A DNA stretch of 64,000 bases, taken from NCBI GenBank assembly GCA_017535325.1, contig JAFXUC010000089.1, positions 4,674 to 68,673 of the forward strand, read 5' to 3'. Under the pieces are notes generated by a model, which saw only the letters and a list, made by a program, of their open reading frames with translations, did not search any database and was not told the DNA's origin. Of the stretch, positions 11,576-64,000 are shown one piece after another. The stretch's first letter is position 1. Every line of letters starts with the position of its first letter. Made by a program: the position numbers and the translations under genes. Origin of the DNA: Bacteroidales bacterium (lineage in GTDB: Bacteria; Bacteroidota; Bacteroidia; Bacteroidales; UBA3824).

Positions 11576-11661
11576 AACTCTATATAAATATATCCTAAAA
11601 TTTTGTGCTTGTAACTACTTGCACCATTTATTCTAAACGTAATTTTTGAAAAAAAGTTTCA

Positions 11662-11669
11662 CAAAATTA
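11662..11669 (-). promoter_or_regulatory. Candidate -7 promoter box for rpoD (TAATTTTG on the minus strand)
   Basis: Exact TAnnTTTG match about 87 nt upstream of ATG 11575. A weaker TATATTTA lies closer to the start, so the assignment is tentative. Confidence 0.25.
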
Positions 11670-11767
11670 CAGTTTTTTTTGGTGATATTATAAAAAATAA
11701 CGTTTTTTAAGAATTTATACCAAAAATTATTCCTTACTTTGCCGTACAAATTAAAATTTTAATTAAT

Positions 11768-12082: not shown

Positions 12083-12094
12083 AAAACATTTTTA

Positions 12095-12124
12095 AGGGGA
12101 TTTTTTAATCCCCTGTTTTTTTCA
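12095..12124. terminator. Hairpin plus T-run between convergent genes (likely bidirectional terminator)
   Basis: AGGGGATT-TTTT-AATCCCCT (8-bp stem) followed by GTTTTTTTT on the plus strand and preceded by an A-rich run. The stop codon of the minus-strand gene (12105-12107) sits in the loop. Confidence 0.6.
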
Positions 12125-12758
12125 AAAATTCCGAAATTTCCGCGTTAAGAGATTTGATGTGCATTTCCGACATTTGGTCTTTATTAAGAGGCAAACCAAG
12201 AAAATTAGTAGGGAAAAGCGAAAATCTCAACTGGAAAAAATGCGACATCAAACGCGCCATGCGGTAATTTGCAACGCTCCAGGGCAGGAGTTCAAAAATC
12301 TCGAAATACGCCTCAAAGGTCAGCATATATTTTTCCCACGGCTGCATATCCTGAACATTCTGACATTTTATATTCATCTGTTCGCAAAAGTCGCTTAATT
12401 CCTGAGTCTTAAAACATTCCCTTCCGCTTTCGCAGTCAATGTATTTGGTACACAAAAGCCAAAAACCGTTGACATCGTTAAAAGTCAAAACTTTGTTTGT
12501 TTTAGCAAACTCCGAAGCCGCCTTATACGCGCGGAAAAGTCCGTAAAGCATTTCATAATCCGACAAACGGCTTGGCGTGGAGGTACAACCCGTTTCAAAA
12601 AGCGTCTCAGCCCCCTCCTGCCCTATTTCCGCGCCGGAGAGAACCGCACTTTGCCAAACAATCTTGTAAAGATAGTTTTTCATGTAACCGTCCTGGCTGT
12701 CTATTTCCAAAGACTTGAATTTGGCGTTGGTATTATAAAAATCCGCTTCTATACTCAT
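12105..12758 (-). CDS. Hypothetical protein, Fic/DOC-like fold with a degenerate active-site motif
   Basis: 217-aa ORF. LPWSVANYRMARLM aligns with the Fic motif HPFx(D/E)GNGRxxRLL but has Leu for the catalytic His and ANY for GNG. An upstream SAVLSGAEIGQEGAETLFETG resembles the Fic N-terminal xIEGxxLTxxE segment. The coding call is firm, but the family call is by eye. Confidence 0.5.
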   Translation of the reverse strand: MSIEADFYNTNAKFKSLEIDSQDGYMKNYLYKIVWQSAVLSGAEIGQEGAETLFETGCTSTPSRLSDYEMLYGLFRAYKAASEFAKTNKVLTFNDVNGFWLLCTKYIDCESGRECFKTQELSDFCEQMNIKCQNVQDMQPWEKYMLTFEAYFEIFELLPWSVANYRMARLMSHFFQLRFSLFPTNFLGLPLNKDQMSEMHIKSLNAEISEFLKKTGD

Positions 12759-12784
12759 TTTTTTACCATATAATAGTTACGTTG

Positions 12785-12792
12785 CAAATGTA
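12785..12792 (-). promoter_or_regulatory. Candidate -7 promoter box for the Fic-like gene (TACATTTG on the minus strand)
   Basis: Exact TAnnTTTG match 27 nt upstream of ATG 12758, just downstream of the giant-gene terminator. Confidence 0.3.
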
Positions 12793-12804
12793 AAAACATT
12801 TTTG

Positions 12805-12853
12805 TAAAAAACAAAGAAAATGCCGTAAACTTTTTAAGGGTTTACGGCATTTT
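12805..12853 (-). terminator. Rho-independent terminator of the giant gene
   Basis: Perfect 14-bp inverted repeat AAAATGCCGTAAAC (12817-12830) / GTTTACGGCATTTT (12840-12853) with a 9-nt loop. On the minus strand it is followed by CTTTGTTTTTT. It begins 26 nt after the TAA stop (12879-12881). Confidence 0.75.
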
Positions 12854-12878
12854 ACTTTATCAAGATTTGCGAAATTTA

Positions 12879-15800
12879 TTATCTGAGCAACGTTACGTTA
12901 CCGATTTGCTTGAAGAGTTTTCCGTTTTCAAACGTACATCTGCACTTGAATACGTAAACGTCCTGTTTGCAAAGTTCGCCACGGTAGTAACCGTCCCAAC
13001 CTATATCCGGATCGGTTGTCTCGTAAATCTTCTCGCCGTAGCGGTTGAAGATTTCAAGGATGTAGGTTCCTTTCTTGACACCGCGTCTCGGGTACGGCAA
13101 GAATACGAAGTTTTCGAACTTGGTCTCAATACCGCCGCAAGGTCCTGACGGGTCAGGTCTGAACGCGGTCGGGAATCTCAACATACCCTCAGCCTCAACT
13201 CTTACCGGAACTTCCTTGCCTTGGGCAGGACAATTCTTGTCAGACCAAACTTTCAAGTTGACGTAATATGTACCCGGTTCGGTGTAATAGTGAACAGGCT
13301 CCATTTCGTCGTAAACATTGCCGTCGCCCATTTCCCACTTGTAGGTTGCAGCACCCTCAGACTCGTTCTTGGTAAAGAGCGGTACATTCGGCAGCCTTAC
13401 TGTATCCGGATGTATTGAGAAGTTGACCGTAGGTGTCGGGTTGATGATCAACGTATCAGTTCTCATAAATACCTCGTGGTCTGCACCGGGACCGTAAGCG
13501 TATTCTGTCAAGAGGTAACGTCCTACCTTGTTGAACAAGTACGATTCGGCTTTCCCGTCGGGAACCATCAATTCTGCTTCAAGTACCGGAGTCTCTGCCG
13601 CATAGTAGATTTCCCATTTTACAGAGTCAGCAAAATCTACACCCTGAACCAAATTGAATACCTCCGGGTTACAACGCTCCAACCTGCTCGGCTTAACAGT
13701 TCTTGTCGGAGCAGCGGGCAATATAGTAACTGTTACCGTATCGCTTGCAGGACAATGCTTGGTCGTAACATCAAGTATTACCTGATACTCACCGTAGGTC
13801 TTGTATTCCCAAAGTTCAGTACCTTTGTACTTAGTATTGTCTTCCCAAAGATCTGTTCCGCCGTCACCGAAACGCCATGTATATCTTACATCGTCGCCCG
13901 GAACGCTGTCGGCATACATCTCAACCTTCATATTAGGCTGCTTGTAGAGCGGACTCGAAAGTCTGATGTTAGCCGTCGGAACGCTGTATACCGTAACCTG
14001 AGCAGAATCAGAAGATGTACATACATCGTTCGGAATCTTCAAACGTGTAGAGAGCCATACCCAGTACGTTGTGTCGCGATATGATTTGTTTTCAAAGGTT
14101 TCAACCCTGATAGAATCATGATCGTCGGTGTCATAACTCTTTATATCGCCGAACTGCCAACGGTAAGATACGTAATCAACATCTTCTTCCGGTACAACCG
14201 TCGTGTTCTGGAACTGTGCCCTGAACGGACTGCAATCTGCCGCCGTACGCGGTATTATCTTGAAGTCAGGTTTCGGAGCAACGTAGTAAGTTACCCTTAC
14301 TGTATCCTCGTTGCGGCATGTTATCGTCGAACGGTCTTGCGTGTAAAGTTTCTCTGCCGTTACAACCGAGTGCCATACAAGAACGTTGGTCATCGCGTGG
14401 AGACTGTCAATCTTAGTATCGCGCTGCTGCTGGTCGTAGTAGTGAACGCCTCCGACAGGAGTATCCCAGTAACCTTTGACTACAATGCCCGATTCAGGAT
14501 CGTCAGTGTTAATCAACGAGTTGCCGTAAGGCTTAGAAGCATTCAACGTAGTGTAATCCACGCAGAGGTGCTGATCTTTGCCCGCGTCTACATCAAACGA
14601 GTAGTTGTAGATGATGACAGAGTCGGTAGCCGTAAAGCCGTTCTTTGTTACATTCCAGTAAAGAACGTTCTTGCCTCTTGTCAAACCGTGAACCGTAGTC
14701 TTCGGGTCTGTTGAGTTCTCGAACTTAGCACCGCCGTTTTGAGCAGCCGACCAGTGAGATACAGCACCTTCAACTTTCTGAGCATTCAATTTAACCGAAT
14801 CCTCGCAAATTGATTTGTCCGTACCGGCCTCTACTGTAAACGCACTGTAATTGATAGTTACAATATCAGTAGCCTTACAAGGCGGTATCCTTCTTACACC
14901 GTCAGGCGAATCGTCTTTCAAGGTTGCAATCCACCGCAACATATTCTGACCTTGTGCAAGGTTGGTAACATGAGTCTTAGGCTGTGTATAGTCGTCAAAC
15001 TTACCAGCACCGGTAGCCACATGCCATTCACCGGTATAAGTATCCACAATCTTCGCTTCTATATCGTACTCATTAGACTGATCTACGGTATATAAGTTGT
15101 CAGAGGTTCTTACGTCAGCATCAACCTTGAATTTGTAACATACGATTCTTACCGCAGCCTCAGCCGTACAGCCGGTTACATTATCTTTTACACTCCAAGT
15201 AAAGATGTTGGCGTAACCCTTACCGTCGTCATCGTAATACAAGCCTGATACTCTGGTATTGAACAACGTGCTGCTCTCAAACTGAGGTGTAACACCCGTT
15301 GCAACAATAGGTGTTTCAGAATCAGCACCCCATGTCCAATGACCTTCCTGCGTAGATGTCAGCGGCTGTCCTGCAAGTGTTGCAAACGTATCGCAGATTG
15401 CCTGATCCTCACCGGCTGTGATGTTTATTGACTGGTTGTTGACCACAACATCCTTGAAGGTCTTACATTGTATATTTTCTCCGTTAACAACCGTCCAACG
15501 GATAGTGTTAGATCCTGACTTCAACTGCTCAACCATAGAAGCCTGTGCAGTACTCAAGTTAGGAGGAATTACACCATATCCTTTAACAACCTGCCAGTAA
15601 CCAGAACCGGCTGACTGATGTGCCTCCAAGTTGGTTGACGGCGTACATACTGTCTTGTTACCAGAGTTTATCGTGATTTCAACCTGCTTGTTGGAAACCG
15701 TGATAGAGTTCGAAGCCGTACAACCGTTAAGTTCAACCGTCCAAGTCAAGACGTTGTCGCTTGCAGGCGGCAAGCCGTATACAGTGGTCTTGTTGTTGGT

Positions 15801-21800: not shown

Positions 21801-24800
21801 AGACTCGTAAGTAGTCTTAGCCTTCGGGAGCGGCTTGCGGTTGTAAAGCGTTACGTAATCCGTAGCAGTACACTTGTCGCTGCCTGTGCCGCGCTCTTCT
21901 GTCCATGTCAAAGTAGCATTCTCGCTGAATGATACATATACCTTGTTAGAGGTTGTGTTGTCATCCTTGAAGGTTACTCCGTCAGAAGCCGTCCAGTATC
22001 CTGTGCCTACCAAAGTCTGAGCCTCAACAACGATGTTGTCCTGACCGCAGACATTGCGTGTCTTGGTTGCGGCTTCGAGGTCGGCGTCAACCGTGAAGGT
22101 CTTGTCGTATACCGTTACCGTAGAAGAAGACTCACAGAAGCCGTCCTGAGACGTTACAGTCCAAGTGAACTTATAGTCGCCGCCGGCAAGGTCAGTTACC
22201 GGAGTCTTGTAAGTCGTCGGACTTGCGATAGTATATGTACCGATATTGTCACCGGTCATCGTCCATTTACCTGTTGCATTGTAATTGAGGTCGCTTGCAT
22301 CTGCCTCCAAAACTGTCTCGTGTTTGCAAACCGTGAGAGATCCACCAGCGTGAGACTCAACAGCCGAGTTGACAAACGTTACAGGATCAGACGGTAAGAT
22401 TGCGCAGTTTCCGCCCTGAACATTCCAGTAGAAACTTGTTGTACCGTGCGGTATGCCTTTGACTACAATGCTTTCCGTGCTTACGTTAGACGGCATTGTT
22501 ACCTCGTCGGGACGGTTGCATGTCCACCAGCCGGTTGCACCGCTTTCAGCAATGCTGCTTGCTTCGAGAGTGATGCCTTCGTCCTTATTGCTGTCGTAAC
22601 AGATTGTTCCGCCGTTTGTAAGAACCTCAGCCTTGTAAGAAGTATTGGTAATAGCAACACTTACAGGTATCTGACATTCAACATCCATATCAGGACGTTT
22701 CTTTCTGTATACCGTCCAAGTGAAGGTTGTCGTAGTATTGGGTACGAGGTTCTTAACAAGTACCTGATTATTTGACTTCTCTTGGTCATAACCATTAGTA
22801 CCCCATGTAAGACCCTGAGCATCGGCTTTCCATTCGCCTCTGTCTTTACCGTCAGCAGCCTTTGCAGAAAGCATGATGTAATCCTCGCAAATAGTCTTGC
22901 TTTCGGTGTAGATTACAGGAACGTCAGGCAAATTGTTGGTGATGACAACAGCCTTAGAGTCTTCGCACTGGTTAGCAGTTCTCTTAACGTGCCATACAAA
23001 CTTAGTACCTTCGTTCTTCAAGCCCTTAACCGTAACGTTCGGGTCAAGCGAACCGTCAGTGTATTTAGAATTTTCAGTGTAGAACTCTACGCCGCTGACT
23101 GCATTCCAGTAACCTGTTGCGTCATCCGGTTTTGTAGCGTTCATCGTGTAAGAATCTGTACACTCGGTGTAATCGTTAACACCTGCCGTAAACTCGCTGT
23201 CTTTGAACATATCGTTAACAACCGTTACATAATCATGTTTGGTCGGGCAGTTAACAATTTCATTATCGTTAGCGTCTTTTGCTGCGTAGTATACGTTCCA
23301 AGCAAACGTGTAAGTACCTTTGGCAGTAAGACCGCTTACCTTTGTAGTATAGTTAGAAGCACTTGCAATTACGCTCTGGTCGATTACATATCCCTCAGGA
23401 GCGTCAATAAGCGTCCAGTAGCCCTTAGCGTTGCCGCTTACGTTCTGTGCTTCGAGCGGCGTTGTCATCAGACCGTCAGGCGAACAAATCGTGATGTCTG
23501 AGGTAACAACTTTTGCAGTTACGTTCTGATTAGCAACCTTGATAACTCTTTCATCGTGGCACTTAGCACCTTTACGTACCGTCCATGTGAAGATGTCGCC
23601 CGTTGACGGAATGTCGATTGCCGTTACAGAGAACGCTGATGCCGCCGTCAAAGTCTGACCGTTTACGACAAACTTGGAACCGTTCTGCGACGTCCATTCT
23701 CCCGTAGAACCCGGATATTTCTCGTAACTGTTAACAACTTGAAGATTAATCTCGTTATCCTTGCAACTGTAAAGGTTGAGGTCAGGAATGTTGCCTGCTT
23801 CAACGTAGTTGTTAGTAATCGTTATAGACGCCTCGCTCTTACAATAACCTTTCTCCAATGTCCAAACGAATACATTATTGTTAAGATCAAGATTATTATA
23901 GGTAACAGAGGTTACGTCGGTTGTTGCACCTTTTGCAACAGCACCGCCCCAAGTAGACCATGTACCCTTTACCTGACCCTTATCAAAGTCCGCCTCATCG
24001 AACTTGTCGGTTGTAAGAGTGATAGTGTTGTCGCAAGTTTCGGTTTCAGCCTTGATTCTTGCCTTAACCGGGTTGTTGTTGGTAACGGTCAAATCAGCAG
24101 TGTATTCGCAGTGTTTGCCGTCTACAACGCCGTCGGAAGTAACAGTCCAAGTAAATGTGTTAGGACCTCTTTCGAGAGCAGCCGTTACAGTAAGGCTTGA
24201 CTCGTCAAGCGCGGTGATTGCACCGTTCTTGTCTGATGACCACTTACCGGTGTAGCCGGTTTCAGGCATTGTGGCTTCAAGGTTGATTTCGGCATCGCAA
24301 GTAGTTGTTATGCCGGTCGTGGTTGAAACCTCAGGCTTGAAGTTGTAGTTGGTTACATAAGCCTCTACAACATCGCTACATTCAGTAAATTCGTTGTCGG
24401 TAACAGTCCAGAGCAACTTAACAGTGCTGTTGTCGTCCATACCGAAGAACTTAGCGTTTATGTTGGTCGTTGCCGAAACAGACTCGTCGAAGTAACCGTG
24501 AGCAGTTGCAACAGCCTTAGACCATACGCCGGTTGTACCGTCAGCAGCAGCGGTTGCAGTAAGTTTTGCAACTTCGCCGTTACAAGTAGAGTACAGTTTC
24601 GTAGCGTTAGCAACAGGTTTGCGGTTGTAAAGCGTGATAGAAGCCTCAGCATCGCAACCGTTATAATCCTCGTGCCATACAAGCGTTACGCCGTTCTTTG
24701 TAATACCGCCGGTTACATCAGTAATGTAGTTGGTCGGATCGCTTACTGTTACGCCCTGAGGAAGAATCCAATGACCTTTTGCACCGGTGTGCGGCAATGT

Positions 24801-27800
24801 AGCCGTCAAAGGTTTGTCAGCAGGAGTTGCCTCGCCGCAGACATAACGCTGTCTGCTGAACGGAACTTCTACACCGTTCTCAATTACAGGCTCGCCGTAG
24901 TAATCAGCGTATTCAACCGTAAAGCCGTTCTTATGAATAGTAACCTCGTCAGAGATTTCACAACCGTGTGCGGAAGTAACAGTCCACTTGAACTTGTAAT
25001 CACCCTCGGTCATACCCTTTATTACCGTGTGGTAATAGGTCGGACTTGCGATGGTTACTAATTCCTTGCTAACACCGCTTTCTATCGTCCACTTGCCGGT
25101 GCCTAAGGATGACGGGTCGCTTGCATTAAGACCGTCGTAATCAGACTTACACCATGTAACGTCGTTGCCTGCATTTGCAGAAACTTTCTCGTTGTTAACA
25201 GTGATGGTCTTCTGATGTTTGAGCGGGTCAAACGGACAAGGACCGTCAACTTTCCAAGTAAATACCGTAACACCGTATTTCAAACCAGATACGCTGATTT
25301 CGTTAGCAGAGTTAGAACCCTCATTAGTGAAGGTTACAGGATTAGAAGTCTCCCAGTGTCCGGGTACTCCGTATCTCTCCTGAGAATTTGCAGCAAGCAA
25401 GTTGTAAGCAGCACCGTCTTTTGTTATCAAGGTGTTGTCGCAAGTCAAGATGCTGGTTTCGCCCTCAGGAACAGCCGTTAAGATTTCAGCCTCGTAATCC
25501 CTGTTGGTAACCTTGATTTCGGCTCTTGAAGTACACTTGCTGCCGGTGCCGTTTGCTCTTTCAACAACCCAAGCAAAGGTTGCTTCGGAATTAGCAGCCA
25601 AACCGCTGATTTCAACTTTGTTGGAGTTAGCATCTTTTGCTGTTACAGTACCAAACAAGTACTCCCAGTGTCCTGTGCCTTCGCTTACAGCCGTTGAATT
25701 AAGTTCGTAAGGCTGATTACAGATAGCGATTTCAGAGCCTTCTTCGATTACAGCCTCGTCAACGGCGTTGTTCTTAATCGTTACCTTGTCAGAAGCCGTA
25801 CAACCTGACGGGTTGGTTACCGACCAAGTGAAGTTGTTAGAAACTTTGTTGCTGAGACCGGTTACCTTAGTAGTAGCCGAAGAAGCGTTCTCAAACTGAA
25901 CCTCAGTGTTAGCCGTCCAAAGACCTGTCCAGCCCTCCTTCAAAGCGGTTGCTTTCAACTCGTACTCGTCAGAGCAGTTCTGACCGTTGATTACGGCAGT
26001 GTTGGCATCAGAGCCGGCATTTACGGTGAACTCTCTGTTTTCAACAGTGAACGTGGTAGAAGTTGTACAACTGTTGACAGTAGTGCCGTGAACAACCGTC
26101 CATGTGAAGGTTGCAGTAGTACCCGGTTTCAAGAAACGGTATGTTGCCGATTTGCCTTCTGCGGTGGTAACTCTTACATTGGAATCAGTACCGAATGTAC
26201 CGCTTTCAGCATCCACGGTCCAAACACCGTGTGTATTTCTGTCGGTCAAATCGTTGGTTGTCGTCATCATAATGCCCTTTGCGCCGTCGCTGGTAAAGTC
26301 TTTGTCAGCAGCGGCAAGAGCCGTATATTCATCATTGTATATCGTGATGTCATCATAATCCTCACAAGCATCGTTCTTAACAGTCCATCTGAGGGTTACA
26401 CCGTTGTTGGTAAGACCGCTTACAGATGTAATAGCCGCAGTTGAATTGTCGAAGGTGATGTAATCGGCATTCTTAGGATTGATAACTTCCCAGTACTGCT
26501 CGGTTACGCCGCTCGGCAATGTTGAAGCGTGGAGTTCGTAAACTCCGCCGCAAGCACTTGCTGACTTGCCGTGTTCATTGTCAACATTAACGTCAGCATC
26601 AACAGTGAACATTGCGTTGGTGATGTTGACAACAGCAGCCGTGTCGCAGACATGCTTGTCATTAATCTCTCTGTAAACATTCCATGCAAACGAGTACTGA
26701 CCAGTCTGTGAAAGACCGTTAACAGTAGTTGCTGTTTCAGTAGAATTTGCAATTACAATCAACTTAGAATCCTCGATACGTGTATCAGGATAAGTTCTAA
26801 GCGTCCAGTAACCCTTAGCATCCTCACCGTACTGAGTAATTGATGTTGCCACCAAATCTACGCTTTCACCGCAAATTGAGTTCTGATCGTTCTTAGCCTT
26901 AGCCTCGGCAAGTACACTGTGGTTAGCGATTGTTACCTCGTAACTGTCATGACAATGACCCTTGTAAACCGTCCAAGTGAAGATTTCACTATTGTTAGGT
27001 TTGATTCCGCTAATCTTAATTACTGAACTTTCAGAATTATCTATCGAAGCGTTTTTGCCGTCGGTCTTCATTGTCCAGCGTCCGTAAGCCGAAGCACCGT
27101 TGTTTACAACCGGGTCTTCTGCCGACAAGGTGTAAACGCCGCCGCAAGTGTAAGCGTCTTCGGGTTCTGTACCCATGTGAACCTTGTTGTTGACAACGTT
27201 GATTGTGCTTTCTACATAACACTTGTCATGTCCCGTGCGGAAGATTCTCCAAGTAAGGAGGTTGTCGTCAGCACTCATGCTTGTAAGCGTTACAAGTGAA
27301 GATGCCGAGATACCGTCCTTGAACGAACCGCTGCGGTTGGTGTACCAGTAACCTTCTACATTGTCAACAACAGGTGCTTTTGCTTGAAGTTCCTGGTTAC
27401 CGTCGCAAGTTTCAACTTCCTGACCGGCGTTGGTCAAGATTTCGGGATAACCAGGATGGATATTGTCGATGGTTACCTCTGTATAGTTGTTGTTACACTT
27501 GTCGCCGGTGGTGTTGAGAACCGTCCAACGGAGAGTGTTGAGACCAAATTCAAGACCCTTAACAGTTGTCTTAGAATCGTTAACACTTGCGAAGGTTACA
27601 TCAGAAGATGTCGTACAAGACCATGTTCCGATAAAGCCTTCCGAAGGCATTTCACCGCTGACAACCGTGTCAAGACCGCAAACCTCAGGAGCGACATAAA
27701 TCGTCGGTTTGTAGTAGTTGTTAACGAGTTTTGCGTAATCGTATGCGGGACAGTCTTTCTCTACGCCGTCAGTATCGGTAAACTTAGAGGTTACAGTCCA

Positions 27801-30800
27801 AACAAGTTCTACCGAAGAGTTACCCGGTATGCCGGAGTAAACTGCGTCGTACTCGTCAACCTCGCTTGCACTATTGCCGTTGAACGAGCCTTTCAAAGTC
27901 GGAGACTTCTTAGACCATACGCCGTGTGTACCAGTAGCAACCGTCTTAGCGTTGAGAGTTACTCTGCCGTCCTCAGCACAAGTGTAGTAAACCTCTTTGC
28001 CTGCATCTACGATAGTCGGCTGAATGTTGTTAAGAGTAATCTTATCCTCAGCCGTACAACCCTTAGAAGTTGCATGCCATGTAAGTGTTGCCGTAGTGTT
28101 AACACCAAGGTCAACAGTGATGTCGTAGTAAGACGGGCTGTTGATAACAACCGTGCCGTTGTTGGGCGATACTGTCCAGTAACCTTCGTATTGAGAAGCG
28201 ATTACACTTGCAGTAGTACCGCAAATTGCGCGTTTCTTTGTTGCATCGTCTGCGGTGTTGTCTGCGTCAACAGTAAAGCCGTCAGCAGAAATTTCAACCT
28301 CGTCAGAAGCCTTACAACCCTTGGTTACATTGCCCTGAGCATCCACAGCATAATGTTTTGAGTAAACAGTCCATGTAAACTGGTATGCACCTGACTTCAA
28401 GCCTCTAACCGTAGATATATATTTCTTAGAATCATCAAATACAACCTGCTCGTAATCTACGCCGCCGGTACATTCCCAAACGCCGTGACATTCTGACTTC
28501 GGAGTTGTAGCAGTCAATGACTCGTATACGCCGTTGCAAGTAAAGCCGTCGTCGCCTGCATTGGTCGTAAGAGTTTCGTTGATAACAACGATTTCAGCCA
28601 CAGACTCGCTGCATTTGTGTTCAGCGTCCCAAGCATGCCACTGTAAGGTTGTAGAACCGTAAGGCAAGTTTTCAACAGTCATCATGTATGAGTTGGTGTT
28701 GCTTGCAAATGTAGCCTCGTTGCCGGTCTCATTTGTCCACCAGCCATTAACACCGTAGTCAGTCAAAACGTCGTTTGCCTGGAGTTTTATCTTATCCGAG
28801 CAGATAACGATTTCCTTAGACTCTTTTGCATTAACAGCAAACGGTACTGTAATATTAGCCTCATACTTCATATTCTTAACAGTAACCGAAGCCTCTGAAC
28901 GGCACTCTTCGCCGTTGCCGTTAGGACGAGAAATTATCCATGTGAATTTCTGATCCTGATTAGCAGCAAGGTTAGTTACAGTAATAATATTTGTAGTATA
29001 GTTACCGGTTGTATATCTAATCTGAGCCGGTGGCTCCCATCTGCCTACGCCTTTGCCTTCGGGATCGTTAGCATTGAGGCTGAGTTCATCACCGCAGACA
29101 ATGTTGCTTGCAAGCGGAGTGATGGAAGCCTTCTTAACCTGATTGTTGGTAATGGTTACCTCTCTCTTGTCTTCACAGCCGTTTGCATTTACTGTCCAAG
29201 TGAAGACGGTCGGCGTAGTATTGTTCAAAGCAGATACTCTTGCATTCGGATTGGTGCTTGCTGTTTCGCCGTCGGTGTAAACAAACGACTGTTTAGCCTC
29301 CCATTTACCGGTTGCACCTTCAACACCTTCGGGATAAGTACCCTGCAATGTGTAAGTACCGTCGCAAGACGCGTTAGCATCGTTGCCCGCCGTGAAACTG
29401 AATCTGTTGTTGGTTACGCTGAACTCTTTCGTAGTCGTACAAGTATTGTTGTTTTCCTTGTGCGTCAAAGTCCACTTGAAGGTTACGTTAGCACCGTTAG
29501 GCATATTGTAGAACGTTGCCGTAGAGCCTTCTACCGAGTAAACCTTTTCTTCGGTCTCACTAAACGAGCCTGATGTAGCGGTTGTTGTCCAAGCACCAAT
29601 CAAGTTGTCGTTCAAAGCGTTTGAAGAAGTCATCTTTATTGTACCGTTGCAGGTTGTCGGGAGAGCAGAAACTGCCGGTGTTACGCTGTTGTTGTAAACC
29701 ACGATTTCTTTCTCGTCTGAGCAACGATCCATAGTAACGCTCCAAATGAATCTCTTACCGAGACCGTCAAGACTTGTAAGGCTGAGTACCGAATTGGTGC
29801 TTACAACCTTTGTGCGGTCTTCGCCGGAGTACCATACGCCGGTAGCGTTTTCAGGAAGCATCGGTGTAATCTCAATGTTGTCGCCGCAGACACTGATGAT
29901 TTCGCCAGTTCTTACAACGTCCTCACGGTTGAAACTTACAGCAGCGTCAACCTCAAACTTGCCGCGGGTTACAACTACCTCGTCGTAAGCATGACAGATG
30001 TTGCCGTCAGCGTAAACCTGACCGTTCTTGTCTTTCTCGGTAAAGCCTTCAACGTGCTTAGATACCGTCCAGCGGAACTTGTAAGAACCGGTTGCAGTAA
30101 GACCGGTTGCAAGTACGCCGTTGCTTGTAGCAGCAGGCTCAAATTCGAGAGTAGACAAGGTTCTGCCTTCGAGAGTCCACTGACCGAATACATCCTGACC
30201 GTCGCCCTCTGCCGTGCCGTATGCCGACAACGGATCTGCGTAGAGGTTAACCTCGTCGCCGCAAATCGGAATTGCTTTCGGGTGAACGTTCGGGATAACC
30301 TGATGGTTGGTTACCGTTATGCTTTCGCTTGCAACGCAAGTGCCTTTCGTTACAGTCCACTTGAACTGCTCGGAAGTGCCGGCTGCGATACCGCTGACAG
30401 TTACATCGTAAGAAGAAGACTCCTCACCGAAAGAAATTCTCTTAGAGAGAGACTCCCATTTGCCGGTTGTTACGCCGGTGTTGTGAGCAACGTTGTCAGC
30501 AGCCTTCAAATTGTAAGTGCCGTTGCAAGTGTAAGCCGTTTCAGGAATCTTGTTGCCAAGGTTAACGGTGTTGTTGTTGATTACAACCGTAGTTGTATTG
30601 TCGCACCATTCGTAACCCGGACGGAAGATTGTCCATGTAAACGTGTTGGCGTCTTTTTCAAGCAGTGCCGTTGATTTGTTGATAACGAGGTTGGTTGTCT
30701 CGCTTACGTAAGCACCTTTCTGAATTACGCCTCTGTCATCAGACCATCTGCCGGTTACGCCTAACTCAACGTTTTCAGCCCAAAGTTCTACAGTACCGTC

Positions 30801-45800: not shown

Positions 45801-48800
45801 GGTTTTGGATACCGTCCAATAGAATGTAACATTCTGATTCTTCGGCATGCCGCTTACATTAACGGTTGCCTTTGAAACATCCTCAGGATCCAAGCCAAGG
45901 TCAAAACTGCCTGACCATTTACCGCCGTCGGCAGGATCAGCCTCCAATCTTACAGTGCCTTCACCGCAAATTACATCACCTGCTTTCGGAGAAATAATTC
46001 TTGCGGGATCAACACTGTTGTTGGTAATCTTAACAGAGTGATCGTTGTATGTACAACCGTTCTTTTCTACAATCCAATACAAAACGTTGTCGCCGCGTTT
46101 AAGTCCGCTGACTTTTGCGTGCGGGTCGTTCTTGCCGTCAACACCTGCAACAGAAGATGTAAAGGTCAAGGTTTCATCGCCTTTCCAAGTACCTTTTGCA
46201 CCTGCGGGAAGTTCGCTTGCAGAAAGTTGTTCATAAACATCCGAACAAGCCGTTACATCGTTGAATCCTGCGCTGAACGGGAATGCCTCGTTGGTAACTT
46301 CAACGTCAATGAAATCGTCGCAATTAGTGAGTTTGCTGTTTTTCAAAGTCCATCTTACGGTTACGCCGCTGTTTTCGGGAATACCTTTGAATACTACCGA
46401 AACATTGCCGTCCATATCATTAACCGTCAAATCTGACAACAAGTTGTTGTTAATGTCATACAAATTGCCGCCGTTTTCAACAGACCATACACCGGAGAGG
46501 TTGGTCTTTGCAAGGTCGTTGGTCTGCGTAATTGTTACCTCGCCGTTGCATACGGGCGAAGAAGCACTTGCACGAGCGTATTCTTTCGTATCATAAAGTT
46601 CTACCCAACTTGACTCATTACATTGGTCATACGAAATAGTCCAGGTCAGTTTAACGCCGTCGGCGGGTATGCCTGTTACTTTCGTATTATAAAGGGTAGA
46701 GTTTGCAAAAATGTTCTTGCCGTTGGAAGCCGTCCAAACACCCTTCTGACCGGTCTTCGGTTCGGTAGCGTTGAGAGTGTATTCGCTGCCGCAGACAGGA
46801 ACAGACTGTTTGTCGTAAACATTGTCGGCTTTTACGTTAAGGGATGTTCTTGTTACAGCCACGTTTTCAACCTTGTCTTCACAGTGTCTCTTACCGTCAG
46901 AGTCTTTTCTCCATGCTGTCCATGTGAAGTAGTATGTGCCGGCAGAGGTAAGATTGCTGATTGCCGTTACAGCAGCAGTACCGCCGTTGGCAAGTGAAAC
47001 GTCTGCGATGGTGATGTCATGCGGAGCAGACACTACTGTCCATATACCTTCCGCACCTGAGTAAGACGAAATGTCTTTTGCACGCAAAACAGCCGTTCCG
47101 TCGCAAGAAGAAACTGTCATCTTCTCCACTTCAACAGGGAGAGCGTAGTTCATAACGGGAACTTCTATCTCGTCATGACATTTTGCGCCTTTCTTAACAG
47201 ACCATGTGAGCGTTGTTCCGCTTTCAGGAATGTTGTATACAGAAACCTGGTTTGCAGTTGCTGTGGTTTCACCCGTTACACTGCCGAATCTTGCAATGCC
47301 GTCTGATGTCCACATACCCTCAGAGCCTTTGTAAGTTACTTTCGGGTCTTGTGCGATAAGACTTTCGATTGTACCGTTACAAGTTTCAACATCGTCGTCA
47401 GTAGCCAATTTTGCTTTTACAAAATTGTTAATGATAGTAACGGGAACATCTGTATAGCAGTTGCCCGCCTTGATTCTCCAAGTGAGTTTGTTCTCATCCA
47501 ATGAGAAGCCTTTGAACTCAGCGTATGTCTTATTGTCAGAGCCGACAAGAGTAAGAGTGTTTGGCAACCATTCGCCGGTCTCGTTTTTAGAAGCATCGGG
47601 AGCGGGAACGTCAATGTGCAATACAGCGTTGTCAGCATTGGGATCAAGACATTCTTCGCGGGTTACCGCCATTCTTGCGTCAACAGTATTGTTGGATACA
47701 ACCTCAGTTACTTTGTTAGCAGAACACTGATGTCCGTCGTTGCTTGTCAAAGTCCATGTAATCTCGTTGTTGCCTTTGTTAAGACCGGTTACAACGGTGT
47801 TGTTGTTGTCGGTAGGCGTAAATACTACACCGTCCTGAACACAAGACCATGCACCCGTAAAGCCGCTCGGAATTGCAGGAGCGGTAAGCGTTCTCGTAGA
47901 GCCGCATTCCTCAGATGACAAATTAGGCTGAGTAATGGTAAGACCTGCGATATAATTATTCTTAACAGTAACTTCTTTTTCGTCGAAACAGTTCTTGTTG
48001 TTTTCAAGTTCAACAACCCATTTAACCTTAGCCGTTGAGTTGGAAGGCAAATAGAAGTTCGGCGAAATTACATTGGTAGAAGAAGCGTTGCCTTCAAAAT
48101 AACCGTTTTGAGAAGTTCTTACCCAGTAAACCTTCTGACCGTCGCTTGCATTAGTGCCTTTGATGTTTACATAACCGTCTTCACAAGCATAATACTCGTC
48201 GGTGCCGAGAGTTGCAGCAGGCTGACGGTTGCTCAAAACTACCGTTGAAGTTGCTGTACATCTGTTGCGTGTTTCGGTATAGGTTACTTCAACAGAAGTA
48301 GATATGCCGCTGAGTGTTACCTCCAACGGTTTTGAAGGATTCGTAGTTGCAATTACAGTACTCGGATTTGTTGACCAAGAGATATTGTCGGCGTTTGCGT
48401 TGCCCGATGCGGTTATCATAATGTTTTTGCCGCAAATATCGCGCTGACCGGTGTATTCACCGTTTTCAAATGCCTCAGCATCGGCATATACGTCGAATCT
48501 CTCGCACGAAATCTTAACCTGGTCGGTAGACTCGCACTTCTCGTCGTCGCCGTCGCCGTATTTGTTGGTAACAATCCAGTTGAATGTATAGAAGCCGCTT
48601 GTCAAACCGCTTACAAGAGTATGGTTGTTGTTAACGTTTGAAATCGAAACAGAAACAAGGTTCAAACCAGTGCTCTTAGTATCGAGTTCCCATCTTCCGC
48701 TAATCGGATGAGAAGGATCGCTGCTTTCAGGAAGCGTATTTGCATCAAGCGTATATTCTCTTGAACATGTATAATCGTCGTCGCCTGCTTTTGCAGTTAC

Positions 48801-51800
48801 CATGTTGTTGGTAACGTTGACAGAAGTACTCTTAACACCGCAAGAGTTTACAGTTTTGTTGTCAGTCAGGTTCCAGTAGAACGTTGTAGTACCGTAAGGT
48901 AACTCAACGGTCATAACTGCGTTGGTAGAAGTTGCAGGCAGCGTAATGTTGTTGTCGTTTACTGACCAGTAGCCGCTTACCTTGTCGCCGTAAGACTTAG
49001 AAGGATCTTCTGCTTCAAGTCTGAATTTAGGCGTACATACAACCTGATCAGGATCTGTCAAAATTCTCGGTGTATAAGCACTGTTCATAATCTCGACAAA
49101 ATCCATACGCTTGCACTGAGTACCGTTCTTTTCAACAACCCAGGTAAATTTGGTCTTGGTGTTTTCAGAAAGGTTTCTTACTTCAACGGAATTCAAAGTA
49201 GAAGCAACTGCGTAGCCGACTTCCTGATTGTTTGAATACCATTTAACACCGCTGACATTCTCCCAGTATCCGGTGTTGTCGTTTGCGACTGCTCTTGCAG
49301 AAAGTGAATATTTGTTTTCGCAGAGCGAGTAACCCTCGGCAGGCTTGTTGTTGATAACAGCCGCTGCGGGAGTATTGTTAAGAACAGTTACAGAACTTTC
49401 AGCCGTACAGCCGTTTGCGTTAACAACATGCCAGAAGAACTTGTTGGGCTCTTCGTTGGAGAGACCTTTAACAAGTACCGTAGCGGCAGAGTTCTGAGCC
49501 GTACCCTCGTAAGTTACAGTAGTAGTTGAAGTCCACCAGCCATACTGACCAGAGGTCAATTCCTGAGCCTTCAACGTGTATTCGTCGGCGTGAGCCTCGT
49601 CGTTACAAACTGTCTCGCCGTCAGCACCCGCGCTTACAGTGAAGCCGTTGTTTTCGATTTCAACAGTTGTAGAAGACGAACATTCAAATACGCCGCTGAT
49701 ACCGGCAACCTGATTTACATAATTTGTAACCGTCCATTTTACCACAGCCTTGCGACCGTTTGAAAGGTTTTTGTAAACAGCGTCTTTGCCTGTTACATCA
49801 CCCTCAAAATCTCCGGTGTAAGAAGGATCGTCTTTCGACCAGAGACCTTTCAAACCGCCGTTTTCAGCGGTGTAGTCAAGGTTGTTTGCCGTGGTAAGCG
49901 AAACTGTTTCCGAGCAGTAAGGTTTCGTTGAAGAAACTGATGCTACTGCCGGAACTTGAATGTTCTTAAATTCGTATGTATCAATAAGTTTGCAATCCAA
50001 ATTCTTATCGTCGCTTGAAAGAACCCAATGAAGTTCTACGCCAGAAGTCGGAATGTTTTTGATTGTCGTATTAGATACTGTAACATCATTTACATAATTT
50101 ACAGCCTCGGTAATATCGTCAGCCAAAGTCCAAACGCCGTGAGTGCCGGTTGCAGTAGTAGCCGAAATTGTAGTTTCAGAACCGCAAACATTGATTTTCT
50201 CGTTCTTAGCAACCTGATTAATCTTCTTAACCGTTACGGTTACGGTTTTGGTGTGCTGACAAGTGCCTGCCGCGTCAAAAGCAGCAATCCATTTGAAGAC
50301 ATATTTGCCTTCGTATGTAAGACCGCTTACAGTGGTATTGTTTGCTTTCGGGTTGAAGCCCGTGCCCACAACATCATCAGAAGAGTTGATATGCTCTTTA
50401 ACCCAGTCAGCAACCTCCCAGTGTCCGACAGCATGATTGCCATTGTAACCGGCAATTGAAGAAGCCTTCAAATCGTATGTAGGACCGCAGATTTCTACTG
50501 CAACGTCCTCTTCCTGAGGTACTGAACAGTTTCTAACATTGAGTTCAACCGTTTTAGCCGGACAATCGCCCTTCTGAACGCTCCATGTAAATTTAGCACC
50601 CGTCTTAGGAATGTTAATTGCCTTAACATTGTCAAATACGTTGTCGTCTTCAATTGATTCAACAGTCTGATTGTTTACTACAAACTTAACACCCGGAGTG
50701 TTAGTAGACCATTTACCTTTCGAGCCTGCATAGTCAATAGTATTGTCGATGGCAACGAGGTCAAGCGTACCGTCGCAGGTTGCATCAGACTGGTCAGGAC
50801 TGAGTTCTGCCTTAACGAAATTGTTCTGAATAGTGATTTCGTCAGACTGTGCGCACTTGTTGTTGAGAGTCCAAGTAAACTTGTTCTCATCGTTTGAAAG
50901 TCCGTAAGCCGTTACACGGAAGTCAGACGAAGTGCTGTGTCCGATTGTCTTATCTCCGAATTTAACACTGCTGTTTTCGATAGACCAAACGCCGGTTACA
51001 TTGTGTCCGGGTTCAACGGCTACAAGTGCGATAGAACCGTCGCAGGTTGTAGTAACAGTCTTGTCGATTTGTGCATCGGCAAGTTTTTCGCTCTTAACGG
51101 TAACTTTGCTCTCTGACTTACAATTCGGATCCTCATTGTTAACCAAAGTCCAAACAAACGTGTTGTTGCCGAATTGGAGATTGAGCGCGGTAACGTTGGA
51201 AGCAGTAGTAGCGGTTGCCTTTTCATCACCAAAGTATACAGAAGTGTTTTCACACGTCCATGTACCTGTAAAGCCGTCAACATCGTTACCAGTGATAATT
51301 ACCTGATCATCACAAGTCTCTGCAACCGAAGCCTTAGCCTTAGCCTCTGCCTTGCGGTTTTTGATAGTAACATGAGCATCAGCATAACAGTTGTTGTCAG
51401 AGTTTGAAGTGATTCTCCATGTAAGAACCGTATTAGTATTAGGTTCAAGACCGATTATCGTTGCGCTGTTGACATTGGCTGCGGAAGATACAAATCTCAA
51501 AGCCTCATTTCCGCCTGTATAAATCCACTGTCCGGTAGCACCGTTGAGTGCCGAAGAAGTAATAGAATATTCCTGTTCTTTTGAATGACAAGCGTTAACC
51601 ACTTTATCTGAAACAACAGGAGCAACATTCTTAACGTCAACAGTAGAAACCGCAGTACACTGGTTTCTTGTCTCTGTCCATGTAAGTGTCGCCATAGTGT
51701 TGTTGCCGACAAAACTGAAAGAAGACGAACCGTCTTTGCTGTTGTCAACGCTTACAACATTTTCATCATAAGTCCATTCGCCGGATGTGCCCTCTGCCGC

Positions 51801-60800: not shown

Positions 60801-63800
60801 ATCGCACCAATAAACTGTATTCGGGTCGTATGTCTGATCGGCATCAACAGTAAACGAATTGTTGGTAATCTCAACCTCGTCTTTAACCTCGCACTTAGAT
60901 GTCTTACCCGGCAAAGCCACAGACCAGCGTATTTTGTATTTTACGCCCGGAGCAGACAACGCCTCCATATCAGTTATATAATTGTTAACCGACTTGATTA
61001 CTATGTCGCCGCCGTCTTTGTCTTTTCCCAAAAGAACTGCCCATGTACCCTGAGCATTTTGATGATACATATCATCGTTGCCGGTAATTGTAATTTTCGG
61101 CTTGCAAATGTCCGCCGTTTTAACGGTTTCGTTGCCGGTAAATGTAGTTACCACATTATAGTTGGTTCCAATCTCAGGAGTTTCAGTATAACTGATGCTC
61201 TTAATATGAGCCTCCATGTGGTTGTTGTCGATAACAGCGTATGCCGTATCAGAACAAATAAAATCAGTATTGTTTTGTTTGGTTATCTTGTTGGTAACCG
61301 TCCAGATATAATGATTTTCGCCGGAAGGAATGTTGGTAACTTCCGTATAATTTGAATTCGGATTGGCAATGCCCGTTTTTAATCCGCCCACGTATGACCA
61401 AGAGCCCGAAGCAGACGAACCGTATTTTACTTTCGGGTCTTTCGCGGAAAGATGCCACTTGTCATCACAAGTCTCATAATATTTTTCAAGAATTTCATGG
61501 TCTATGTGGTTGTTAATAACATAAACACGGACACGTTTTTCGCAGACAGGACCTTTGCCGTCCTGAGCCCTATATGTAAGAACCCAGTTGAATGTAGATT
61601 TTCCAAGCGGCAGGTTGTTGATCTGTGTCTTGTCTGACGAGGGACTTACTATAGTACACGTTTCGCCTCTTTCATTGCCGATAAACTCCCAATGACCTTC
61701 GCCTATCGGGTGCGCACCAGCCTGCAAAAGATACTGACCGTTTTTGTTTTCCTGAACGTTGGAAGAATATTTCTTTCCGGTAGTTCCTACCGTCCATTCA
61801 GGATTCTGACATGTATATACATAATACTCATATTTCTGTTTGCCGTCTTTGTCCAAATATACCCTCTCAATTCCGCCGACTTCAATTTTTTCGTCGTAGT
61901 AGTCGATTTTCGGATCATCAGGCTCGCTGTTGATTACTTTCATCTCGTCAGTAACCCTACAAGTAGGATCTGTTGTACCTCTTGCATTTGATTCTGATAT
62001 GCTGTAATAAACACCGTCTTTCACGTATGCATTTGCATTAGTTGAAGTACCCCAGAATTTATATGGAGTAAGATCGCTGAGTTTATTCCAAACAGTAAGT
62101 GTTATAGGTGTCTCGCCCTGAGGTGCTTTATAAAAATATACATTTTTTACTGCATCGCCTGTCAACTTTTCATTAGCAGTTCCGCCTACACTTGCAGCAG
62201 CAGGCTGTCCAGTTGCAGTCAACGAAAGACCCGAACCGTATGCGTTGCCGGACTTGTTGAAAGACCACATACCTTCACCGTATTTCAAAGTCTGCGGCTG
62301 CAACTGCGTAAAGTCATCGGCATTGCCGCAAATATAAATATCAGGACCGGCATGAGACTCAACATGGTTGTTGTATACGACAACCGTGTCAGAAGCCTGA
62401 CAACCATAACGCGATACATTCCACTCAAATTTGTTTTCACCCTGACTAAGATTTGCAAAACGGGTGATGGCATTGGTTGCTTCCGTATTATACTTAGAAT
62501 CCAAAACCGCGCCGTCAGACTGCAAAACTTTCCACCAGCCGTGAGCATTCATAAACTGGTCTTCACAAACCGACTGAGTCTGGTTTGCAGGACAAGGATC
62601 CTCTCCTTTCAACTCGGCAGTAGAATCACAAACAATAAAGTCGTGTTTATGGTCAATGTCAAATGAGTTGTTGTATATCAAAACAACATCCTTGTCAATA
62701 CAATAGCCGTTGGATTTTCTACCGTTGGCAACCCAATTTGTTCTTGTAGTACTCTTAGCATTAACAGAATACACATCATATACATTCCAACCCGGAGCAC
62801 ACAATTGAGGATCCGCTGCTGAAAAATGTCGGTTGTTACCAAAACTATAAATTTCCGAATTAGCGATACGCGCCACCGTCCAAACCATCCTAACCGGATT
62901 TTTGTTACCGTTAGACTCAGGTATTCCGGAAATAGAAGCCGTATTATTCTTAAATTTTTCATAATGCGCATCAATTGTTGACTTTGCACCATTGGCGTTA
63001 CTTGCATTCCGTGTTATCGGTACACCCAAAGCAGCATTATTATCACCATTATAATTACCTTTGTTGTTTGCTGTACCAAGATATATTGGATTTCCATCTA
63101 CTTTAAGTTTGTTCAAAATCTCAAACTCATTCGTTGAAGTATTATCAACAGACCAAAAACCTACAAGCGTAAAATCGCCATGCGCTTGATCCGCAATCGG
63201 TTTTGCTGACAAAGTGAAATTATCCGTGCAAAGATTCCACACCTTTTCTCCCGTACCGTTGAGAGAAAGACGCGCATCACCATCCCTTGTCTCTGCAACC
63301 GCCTTTACACTGTTGTTCCAAATTGTAACATGTCCGATAGAGGTACATGCCTCACCGTTTTTACCCGTACCGTTTTGACTGTACAAAGTAAACACCGTAG
63401 GACCGGCAGGAAGATTTTTGACCTTTATAGAGCCGTTATCACCTCCTGATTGCCATTCTTTAACACCGTCACTATATGTTATTACATCATCATGATTTGA
63501 TGTAAGTTTGCCATAATTGTTAATCTTAGTCCAAGTCAACGCAGTTTCATCCGAACATACAGCATCAGATTCCAATCCGGCAGTACCTTTGGCATCTGCA
63601 ATGAATCTCGCAGTATCGGCAACGTTGATAGTATAATAAACTGTGTCCCAATCCCAGCAATAATTACCGTCATCTACAACCTTATTCAAACCCTCATAGA
63701 ACTCTTTACCTAAATTATTGCCATCACTGGGCAGATTAGGATTTTTCAACTGTTTTACAGCGTACTCAAAACCGTATATACCGGAACCTGTTGTACCGGA

Positions 63801-64000: not shown

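Follow-up and report, generated by a model that had tools for sequence, protein, structure and literature searches.

A giant gene of a gut Bacteroidales bacterium as a candidate for a very long T9SS type-B surface fibre

The giant gene and its genomic context

The stretch of DNA analysed here (the window; 64,000 nt from a Bacteroidales bacterium, contig JAFXUC010000089.1 of assembly GCA_017535325.1) is dominated by a single gene on the reverse strand, which takes up 80% of its length (Table 1). The frame is free of stop codons from position 63998 onwards, a run of 17,039 codons with a probability of about 10^-442 at the base composition of the window, under which one stop per 17 codons is expected. 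Counted from the Met codon at 63914, 17,011 codons precede the stop and 28 further open codons lie upstream. A recount of the reading frames bore out the unbroken frame of more than 51 kb described in an initial annotation. The longest competing ORF overlapping the gene reaches at most 379 aa. The view of the same annotation that the frame is no artefact holds as well, as the coding signal runs from end to end and intact Ig-like domains tile the frame, confirming one real gene that is coding along its full part in the window. This part corresponds to a protein of predicted 1.85 MDa with a pI of 4.7.

The hairpin terminator previously proposed at the 3' end is real, consisting of an 11-bp stem (12850-12840 paired with 12830-12820), a 9-nt loop and a T-rich tail (12819-12806). 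It was missed by a consensus scanner because the loop exceeds the 8-nt limit of that program. Rfam and tRNA scans across the window returned nothing.

Table 1. Features of the giant gene in the window (residues are numbered from the window edge).
Feature	Window positions	Strand	Remarks
Giant ORF, 5' end missing	12879..64000	-	17,039 sense codons + TAA 12879-12881
Irregular, putatively distal region, residues 1-747	61758..63998	-	three good repeats, degenerate repeats, unique inserts
Repeat zone, residues 141-16571	14286..63578	-	170 tandem Ig-like domains, ~90 aa each
Eight cassettes of 12 domains each, residues 4401-13400	23799..50798	-	1,101-1,136 aa, about 3.35 kb each
Four PKD/Ig-like modules, residues 16572-16940	13179..14285	-	three of four with W-x-[FM]-G-D motif
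Putative C-terminal T9SS type-B sorting domain, residues 16942-17039	12882..13175	-	TIGR04131 + PF13585, ends ...IGNVTLLR
Intrinsic-terminator-like hairpin + T-rich tail	12806..12850	-	29 nt past the stop codon

The genes downstream encode a 217-aa orphan, a DUF1292 protein, an RpoD-like sigma factor, a DUF6272 protein, SiaC and others, and downstream synteny with DUF1292 and RecJ is common among the orthologous loci. No PorP/SprF- or PorE-like gene was found in the 12.9 kb downstream within the window, in the 10 kb downstream of the orthologues L006 and L010, or in the 1.1 kb upstream of the orthologue L086. Such a PorP/SprF-like partner is often, not always, adjacent to its substrate gene, as PG1035 of P. 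gingivalis binds the T9SS component PorP itself (Gorasia et al., PMC9143113). The 217-aa ORF (12105-12758) was considered as an anchor or partner and rejected, having no family match and no tblastn counterpart in eight orthologous loci.

Ig-like repeats and 12-domain cassettes

The repeats follow the consensus C-x15-G-x-W ... F-x-W-T-V ... C ... V-x-I-x-N, and the signature residues (Cys/Gly-x-Trp/Trp/Cys) are kept in all 170 domains, which share a mean pairwise identity of 24%. Cys occupies the two conserved Cys positions in 96-98% of the domains; repeats without it are mostly trimmed alignments, and the pattern of presence and absence gives no Cys pairing. Only sub-threshold Pfam matches to the repeat were obtained. 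Modelled with AlphaFold2 as a pair of domains, it formed two beta-sandwiches (pLDDT 91).

The repeat profile matched grappling hook protein A (GhpA, chain 9flp_A) with an E value of 6.3e-94 and 11 strong domains, and the best Foldseek match of the model was the GhpA base (9fly_A, E 1.9e-10). The SprB repeat (PF13573) gave no match at E <= 0.01 in four overlapping pieces spanning the 17,039 aa. As judged from these comparisons, the repeat is of the Ig-like type solved in GhpA, with homology to its stem and base domains, and not the SprB repeat.

Part of the zone is organised in eight cassettes, which are 24-48% identical to one another. The most recent event among them is a two-cassette duplication, in which C4C5 gave rise to C6C7. 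Serial duplication of this unit of about 1,100 aa is likely to have led to the extreme length of the protein, the ancestor of which was probably about 6,000 aa long, as typical family members are.

PKD modules and the sorting domain at the C-terminus

The PKD domains claimed earlier at the 3' end were recovered by Pfam search above the gathering thresholds (PKD_4, PF18911, 69 bits against a cutoff of 27; PKD, PF00801, 48.3 bits against 23.5), and the modules match the PKD structures of ColH (E 3e-16). In an AlphaFold2 prediction of the last 300 aa, the PKD part was confident and the sorting-domain part had a pLDDT below 50.

The assignment of a T9SS type-B sorting domain in the initial annotation was supported: the E values against TIGR04131 (3.4e-7, 30.3 bits) and PF13585 (CHU_C; 7.3e-5, 23.3 bits) are significant, but both scores lie below the curated cutoffs of 35 and 27, respectively. 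The orthologous C-termini, which are 54-70% identical, matched both models in all eight cases, with best E values of 5e-9 and 3.6e-8. The motifs FPNAF.P.P.GP, IFNRYGE, GWDGYYRG and GNVTLLR are conserved in the domain, and no type-A sorting-domain model matched. The extreme C-terminus of the giant protein fits the class of type-B substrates.

The N-terminal region and the full length

Residues 1-747 had no sequence match in Pfam, NCBIfam or PDB. Neither at Met 63914 nor in the 28 residues before it was a signal peptide detected, so the true start lies outside the window. Window residues 1-3710 align collinearly with the metagenomic orthologue L086 (44.7% identity), residue 1 falling at about residue 2967 of L086. 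The orthologue starts about 2,960 aa beyond the window edge with the N-terminus MFKLVSKKVAVRLFTVLSILFIIQTSAWA, which carries a signal peptide. As the N-terminus of L086 sits that far upstream, the complete giant protein is probably about 20,000 aa long, and the earlier figure of just over 17,000 aa stands as a minimum (17,039) rather than as the full length.

An exact 60-mer from the window edge had no match among genome and metagenome contigs. A homologue search with the first 800 aa returned nothing among proteins of up to about 1,325 aa, a result that does not imply absence; the search method listed proteins up to that size only and missed P0107 (3,215 aa), which is 45% identical over the C-terminal 470 aa.

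Orthologues and relatives

The nearest relatives of the giant gene are found in Bacteroidales MAGs from ruminant guts. Eight of them carry positional orthologues whose last ~3,600 aa align collinearly with the giant protein (37-53% identity) and whose frames show no stop as far as the DNA was examined, for at least 3,633 residues; across nine other assemblies, orthologous frames are open for 3,400-6,700 aa. An orthologue lies on contig JAFPYR010000017.1 (141,581 bp) of the goat abomasum MAG RGIG1595, its stop falling near contig position 16,031. The cross-species comparison covers window residues 1-3710 (with L086) and the last ~3,600 aa (with the eight MAGs).

The same Ig-like domain was found in 10,531 representative proteins; many of them are complete, begin with a signal peptide and finish in ...VTLLR or ...VTLIR. 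The giant protein is far longer than any relative found. The Bacteroidota O-glycosylation sequon is markedly avoided in it and strongly enriched in some of the relatives.

A proposed surface fibre and the alternatives

The tiling by Ig-like domains, the PKD modules together with the type-B sorting domain, and the Bacteroidales relatives all support the initial proposal of a T9SS type-B surface fibre or adhesin. With a probability of roughly 80%, the giant gene encodes a very long fibre of this class, in which an Ig-like stalk grown by cassettes carries an irregular region at its distal end. A Sec signal peptide, seen only in the orthologue L086, would direct the chain to the periplasm. The sorting domain would then be recognised by the T9SS and stay on a PorP/SprF-like protein of the outer membrane, as suggested by the work of Gorasia et al. 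(2022, PMC9143113), so that the C-terminus would be the cell-proximal end. The stalk would be formed by Ig-like beta-sandwiches arranged as beads on a string, about 170 in the window and probably about 190 in the full protein, and may reach roughly 0.7-0.8 micrometre at about 4 nm per domain (240 nm for the 5,898 aa of GhpA). The distal end would be the irregular N-terminal region of about 3,700 aa, which contains unique inserts and is likely the binding part.

An SprB-like gliding adhesin, that is, a mobile type-B cargo, would share the type-B sorting domain and the giant repetitive architecture, and the lack of a PorE-like gene nearby also fits this reading, since a missing nearby PorE has been associated with mobile type-B cargo (Gorasia et al., PMC9143113). 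It is nevertheless improbable, as no SprB-repeat match was found across all 17,039 aa and no sprF-like gene in the 12.9 kb downstream of the giant gene.

Among solved proteins, the closest by a wide margin is GhpA from Aureispira sp. CCB-QB1 (PDB 9flp/9fly; Lien et al., bioRxiv 10.1101/2024.01.29.577165), and both proteins appear to be T9SS substrates built of Cys-containing Ig-like repeats. A grappling hook of the GhpA type, in which several chains run side by side as a rigid hollow stem and distal hooks seize the flagella of prey in ixotrophic predation, could be expected from this likeness. However, the strong matches are confined to the 11 base domains of GhpA (4754-5724), whereas the stem domains, like residues 763-1487, match the repeat profile weakly. 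No sequence similarity to the hook of GhpA (26-1402) was found in the first 760 aa of the window or the first 300 aa of L086. The ghpB (PorP) and ghpC (PorE) genes lie immediately downstream of ghpA, and neither was found downstream of the giant gene or of the orthologues L006 and L010. With more than 10,000 representative proteins containing it, the domain is, moreover, a generic building block. The host differs as well, being an anaerobic Bacteroidales of the gut and not a filamentous marine member of the Saprospiria. A hook of this kind is thus very unlikely.

The reading frame itself might be an artefact of assembly or consensus, or a decaying pseudogene that is split into shorter genes in real populations. 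Frameshifts inside the ORF, if shown by long reads, had been named in the initial annotation as evidence against the gene. One was seen in a single independent assembly, on the ENA scaffold L087 of a sister sample, where a 1-nt deletion at window position 34349 splits the ORF into gene calls of 932 and 7,095 aa; this bears on the named condition but does not refute the gene. Strain heterogeneity, visible as a SNP-dense patch of 3 kb, and the ending of other public short-read contigs of the organism near or within the gene point in the same direction. Apart from the deletion, however, L087 is collinear and free of mismatches along most of its length, and the deletion site lies inside R098, which is full-length in the window frame (56.7 bits). 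Window positions 8284-14465 and 24163-38613 recur collinearly in independent assemblies of the same organism, one contig of which holds an uninterrupted call of 7,095 codons that ends at the same stop. Collapse or expansion of repeats in the assembly is unlikely because mean identity among the domains is only 24% and no DNA repeat in the gene is longer than 234 nt (at 73% identity). With signature residues intact in every one of the 170 domains, no stop over 51 kb and orthologues open for thousands of residues in the nine other assemblies, an artefact or a pseudogene is the least probable of the alternatives.

Implications

T9SS type-B fibres such as SprB and GhpA, both about 6,000 aa long, serve Bacteroidota as tools for moving and for catching other cells. 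The giant protein belongs to this known kind as an extreme new member. Tentatively, it may be the largest T9SS substrate yet, a single expressed chain of about 20,000 aa with ~190 Ig-like domains and a mass of roughly 2.2 MDa that is conserved across a clade of ruminant-gut Bacteroidales and forms a cell-length fibre of 0.7-0.8 micrometre. In that case, folded cargo three times the size of SprB or GhpA would have to be handled by the T9SS translocon and by a single PorP-like anchor, and a gut anaerobe would possess a tether on the micrometre scale, tipped by a non-repetitive distal head, with which to reach plant particles or other microbes. The avoidance of the O-glycosylation sequon would then point to a distinct export or surface strategy. 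Two questions are raised by such a family member in uncultured rumen Bacteroidales: what the upper size of folded cargo is for T9SS export and anchoring, and for what a gut anaerobe would use a cell-length tether, be it fibre attachment, aggregation, or the capture of partners or prey.

The gene is estimated to occupy about 1.5-2% of a typical Bacteroidales genome of 3-4 Mb, in agreement with the share of more than 1% put forward initially, and this large cost argues for strong selection on it. It also offers a clear case of gene growth via duplication of 12-domain cassettes, and the analysis defines an Ig-like domain family of more than 10,000 representative proteins with GhpA as a solved relative.

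Comparison with known giant proteins

The statement of the initial annotation that very few bacterial proteins far above 10,000 aa have been reported is out of date. According to West-Roberts et al. (bioRxiv 10.1101/2023.11.21.568195), proteins of at least 10,000 aa are frequently detected in several phyla, and the longest predicted one has 85,804 aa. The giants of Omnitrophota and other phyla described there likewise come from single genes of more than 10,000 codons and are proposed to take part in attachment to other cells. Those of the Omnitrophota type are distinguished by many transmembrane regions and divergent SecA DEAD helicase-like domains, whereas Pfam and NCBIfam searches of the giant protein found PKD modules and the sorting domain only, with no SecA DEAD helicase-type domain, and its export would be through the T9SS.

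SprB of Flavobacterium johnsoniae (6,497 aa), anchored via a PorP-like protein (PMC9143113), is a giant repetitive surface fibre with a type-B sorting domain, as predicted for the giant protein, which differs from it in having no PF13573 match and no sprF-like gene downstream and in being about 2.6-3 times longer. With GhpA it shares the T9SS sorting domain at the C-terminus and the long run of Cys-containing Ig-like domains; GhpA comprises 5,898 aa with 52 stem repeats and forms a heptameric hollow stem, whereas for the giant protein 17,039 aa and 170 repeats are the minimum.

The closest plan is seen in uncharacterised Bacteroidota proteins such as P0073 (6,346 aa, 69 repeats) and P0074 (6,580 aa, 73 repeats), which have a signal peptide and a ...VTLLR end and likewise combine Ig-like repeats, PKD modules and a type-B sorting domain. 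They align best to the C-terminal 2,500-6,600 aa of the giant protein, which contains 2.3 times the repeats of the top-scoring representative among 1.84 billion. Its excess over such relatives consists of the eight 12-domain cassettes and the long irregular N-terminal region.

An uninterrupted frame that encodes protein

The initial annotation claimed a single uninterrupted frame of more than 51 kb, and this was borne out: 17,039 sense codons on the minus strand are free of stops from the window edge to TAA 12879-12881, comprising 17,011 codons from the Met nearest the 5' end of the frame (63914) and 28 further open codons ahead of it. With one stop expected per 17 codons from the base composition of the window, the probability of such a frame by chance is ~10^-442, and the longest competing ORF over the giant gene reaches 379 aa. 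The hairpin terminator claimed for the 3' end is likewise present, with a T-rich tail, 29 nt past the stop. The in-window protein (1.85 MDa, pI 4.7) is abundant in Thr, Val, Asn, Ser and Gly, and contains 2.3% Cys and 2.4% Trp, both spread very evenly along the chain.

A de novo repeat model, started from a single segment and then iterated on the window protein, uncovered 170 significant back-to-back copies of a ~90-residue unit at residues 141-16571. Nearly every copy preserves two cysteines (at 96% and 98%), the motif G-x-W and, within F-x-W-T-V, a second Trp. The AlphaFold2 model of a two-domain unit, with the other units supplied as the alignment, featured two beta-sandwich, Ig-like domains (pLDDT 91, pTM 0.80). 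An accidental open frame or a decaying pseudogene is disfavoured because 170 consecutive domains are intact, and the whole giant frame codes for protein.

Assembly and the artefact reading

The repeat copies share a mean pairwise identity of 24% (maximum 67%). Direct DNA repeats reach at most 234 nt, at 73% identity, and nothing relevant came from Tandem Repeats Finder; repeats this diverged give an assembler few chances of collapse or expansion. Five contigs of the same organism, taken from four further samples, agree with window 8284-14465 (99.4-100% identity). L087, a 34,242-bp ENA scaffold of the same organism from sample SAMN15830000, aligns collinearly with window 38613-24163, the region of the youngest duplicates, and its final gene call runs for 7,095 codons without interruption to the same C-terminus. 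The frame is likewise open in nine orthologous loci of other assemblies. An assembly artefact is unlikely, and so is the wider reading of the frame as artefact or pseudogene, against which stand the intact domains, the diverged repeats, the agreeing independent contigs and the open orthologues.

That reading is kept alive at a low level by L087, which has, besides a 16-N scaffolding gap, a 1-nt deletion relative to the window at 34349 (residue ~9884); owing to the deletion, its gene calls fall into two, of 932 and 7,095 aa. Long reads with a frameshift or stop inside the ORF had been named in the initial annotation as a sign against it, and the L087 scaffold does carry a frameshift, but the repeat domain at the deletion site (R098) is complete in the window frame, where it scores 56.7 bits, so the window version is the intact one; the deletion may be either a real variant or an error. 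L087 and the window are identical over most of 14.4 kb, with a 3-kb patch (window about 30340-33340) of 135 mismatches (~4.5%) between flanks without mismatches. Together, patch and deletion suggest strain mosaicism, within-gene recombination or chimeric assembly.

Domain architecture

Features of the window protein and neighbouring genes
Feature	Residues	Window positions
Window protein	1-17039	12882-63998 (-)
Irregular region: three good repeats, degenerate repeats, unique inserts	1-747	
Regular Ig-like repeats	748-16571	
Eight cassettes of 12 domains each, inside the regular repeats	4401-13400	
Four PKD/Ig modules	16572-16940	
C-terminal sorting domain (CTD)	16942-17039	
217-aa ORF		12105-12758 (-)
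RpoD-like sigma factor		10715-11575
Double DUF6272 protein		9400-10539
SiaC-family phosphoprotein		8961-9392
TPR + SpoIIE/PP2C phosphatase		364-2340

The unique inserts of the irregular region had no match in Pfam, NCBIfam or PDB. The cassettes measure 1,101-1,136 aa (~3.35 kb) and share 24-48% identity; the most recent duplication involved two cassettes, as C4 and C6 are 48% identical and C5 and C7 40%.

A search with the PKD, TIGR04131 and PF13585 models, proposed in the initial annotation, returned matches to all of them. The PKD domains near the 3' end were confirmed by PKD_4 (69 bits, cutoff 27), and ColH PKD structures also match (E 3e-16). The predicted T9SS type-B CTD matches two T9SS type-B models, PF13585 (E 7e-5) and TIGR04131 (E 3e-7), with the window copy scoring under both curated cutoffs. 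The two models also recognise the C-termini of all eight orthologues (54-70% identical), at best with E 5e-9 for TIGR04131 and 3.6e-8 for PF13585, and the conserved motifs are FPNAF, IFNRYGE, GWDGYYRG and GNVTLLR.

Relatives of the repeat

In Pfam, the repeat matched only K319L-like PKD models, below threshold. The ~90-aa Ig-like repeat seemingly has no dedicated Pfam model, despite a solved relative in GhpA, the grappling-hook protein of Aureispira. Among PDB sequences, the repeat profile ranked GhpA first (9flp, 5,898 aa, E 6e-94), with 11 strong domains at 4754-5724 and weaker ones along the stem, followed by human KIAA0319-like PKD domains. The best Foldseek match was the GhpA base (9fly, E 1.9e-10), and generic tandem Ig and cadherin folds ranked lower.

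Among 1.84 billion representative proteins, the profile matched 10,531 at E <= 0.001, of which 2,001 also passed E <= 1e-30. The best-scoring representatives have 69 repeats in 6,346 aa and 73 repeats in 6,580 aa, and none of the best 150 among the 10,531 matches exceeds 7,425 aa, in a library that may omit very long proteins. Several are complete, from a signal peptide to a C-terminus ending in VTLLR or VTLIR. The homologues match the window protein best over its C-terminal 2,500-6,600 residues. This alignment and the size of the ~6,000-aa relatives fit growth of the window protein from a ~6,000-aa ancestor through cassette duplication, as far as a library that may lack very long proteins can indicate.

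The window protein shows a strong depletion of the sequon for O-glycosylation in Bacteroidota, D-[ST]-[AILVMT] (26 observed vs 84 +/- 9 in shuffles). D-[ST] is depleted overall as well (93 vs 221), whereas E/N/G/K-[ST] are not. The orthologue on metagenome contig L086 shares the sequon depletion (7 vs 33). Other proteins with the repeat form two groups: the sequon is depleted in P0074, P0085 and P0090, and strongly enriched in P0073 (147 vs 46), P0075 (77 vs 26) and P0084 (82 vs 40).

Orthologues and the missing N-terminus

Scanning species-representative genomes with a C-terminal profile yielded eight close loci (51-68% identity over 300 aa), all in Bacteroidales MAGs; the sources given for two are goat abomasum and yak reticulum, and the other six have MAG names that point to gut origins. 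All eight are collinear with the last ~3,600 window residues at 37-53% identity, and each ORF is open to the start of the DNA examined (3,633-3,640 aa in five, ended by contig ends in three). Several share downstream DUF1292 and RecJ genes with the window, and the eight loci are therefore positional orthologues.

The 217-aa ORF directly after the giant gene had no Pfam or NCBIfam match and no tblastn counterpart in the eight loci, where DUF1292 and RecJ are conserved, and looks like a lineage-specific insertion. In the goat-abomasum locus, L006, the gene next to the giant ORF (positions 11210-13027 of L006) encodes a Cthe_2159-type carbohydrate-binding protein (E 9e-68), followed further downstream by VTC, DUF4956 and DUF2490 genes and a LytTR two-component pair; synteny 3' of the giant gene thus holds only in part. 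In the window, the SiaC gene adjoins the DUF6272 gene, and the two, taken with the SpoIIE/PP2C gene, resemble a SiaABC-like partner-switching module; the sigma factor gene lies nearby.

The first 400 residues of the window protein, scanned against metagenomes, retrieved one contig, L086 (51,645 bp), whose ORF aligns collinearly with residues 1-3710 of the window protein (44.7% identity). It starts 2,966 residues further upstream, past an in-frame stop, where a Met leads into a classical signal peptide, MFKLVSKKVAVRLFTVLSILFIIQTSAWA. These ~2,960 residues hold ~20 repeats and several large inserts, the latter without a Pfam match. By extrapolation from this orthologue, the full protein of the window organism would comprise ~20,000 aa with ~190 Ig-like domains.

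Proposed export and anchoring

The signal peptide, seen in the orthologue, would direct Sec export, and the T9SS would then recognise the type-B CTD and keep the chain on a PorP/SprF-like outer-membrane protein (PMC9143113). If the chain is held like GhpA, the gliding adhesin SprB and PG1035, for which anchoring through the C-terminus has been proposed, its C-terminus would lie at the cell surface and its N-terminus at the distal end. At ~4 nm each, ~190 domains could form a stalk of ~0.7-0.8 micrometre, as scaled from GhpA (240 nm per 5,898 aa), with the irregular distal ~3,700 residues as the putative binding part.

The 12.9 kb downstream in the window, the 10 kb that follow two of the orthologues and the 1.1 kb ahead of the L086 ORF contain no PorP/SprF- or PorE-like gene, whereas the partner gene adjoins in sprB-sprF and ghpA-ghpBC. 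This absence is compatible with the proposed mechanism, because Porphyromonas gingivalis PG1035 binds PorP, itself a T9SS component (PMC9143113).

Comparison with known systems

GhpA is a T9SS substrate whose seven chains form a 240-nm hollow stem with 52 Ig-like repeats; it has glycans, an N-terminal hook and disulfides that link one Ig-like domain to another close by, and its gene is followed by PorP (ghpB) and PorE (ghpC) homologues (bioRxiv 10.1101/2024.01.29.577165). A true GhpA-type grappling hook is not supported for the window protein: the common domain is a generic building block, sequence comparison of the first 760 aa of the window protein and the first 300 aa of the L086 orthologue found no homology to the hook, and ghpB and ghpC are absent beside the giant gene. 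GhpA is reported to be glycosylated in every domain (bioRxiv 10.1101/2024.01.29.577165), in contrast to the sequon depletion of the window protein. An SprB-type gliding adhesin is not supported by domain content, as the SprB repeat (PF13573) has no match, and keeps a low probability.

The premise of the initial annotation that only a handful of bacterial proteins far above 10,000 aa have been reported is outdated, as proteins above 10,000 aa are frequently detected in several phyla, with predictions up to 85,804 aa (bioRxiv 10.1101/2023.11.21.568195). The putative giant fibre is surprising for T9SS biology and gut Bacteroidales without founding a new category. It is of a known kind, a T9SS type-B surface fibre of Ig repeats with the domain type solved in GhpA, and a new, extreme member of it: the window protein is at least 2.6 times as long as SprB and at least 2.9 times as long as GhpA, and its repeat count is 2.3-fold that of the best representative in a library that may omit very long proteins.
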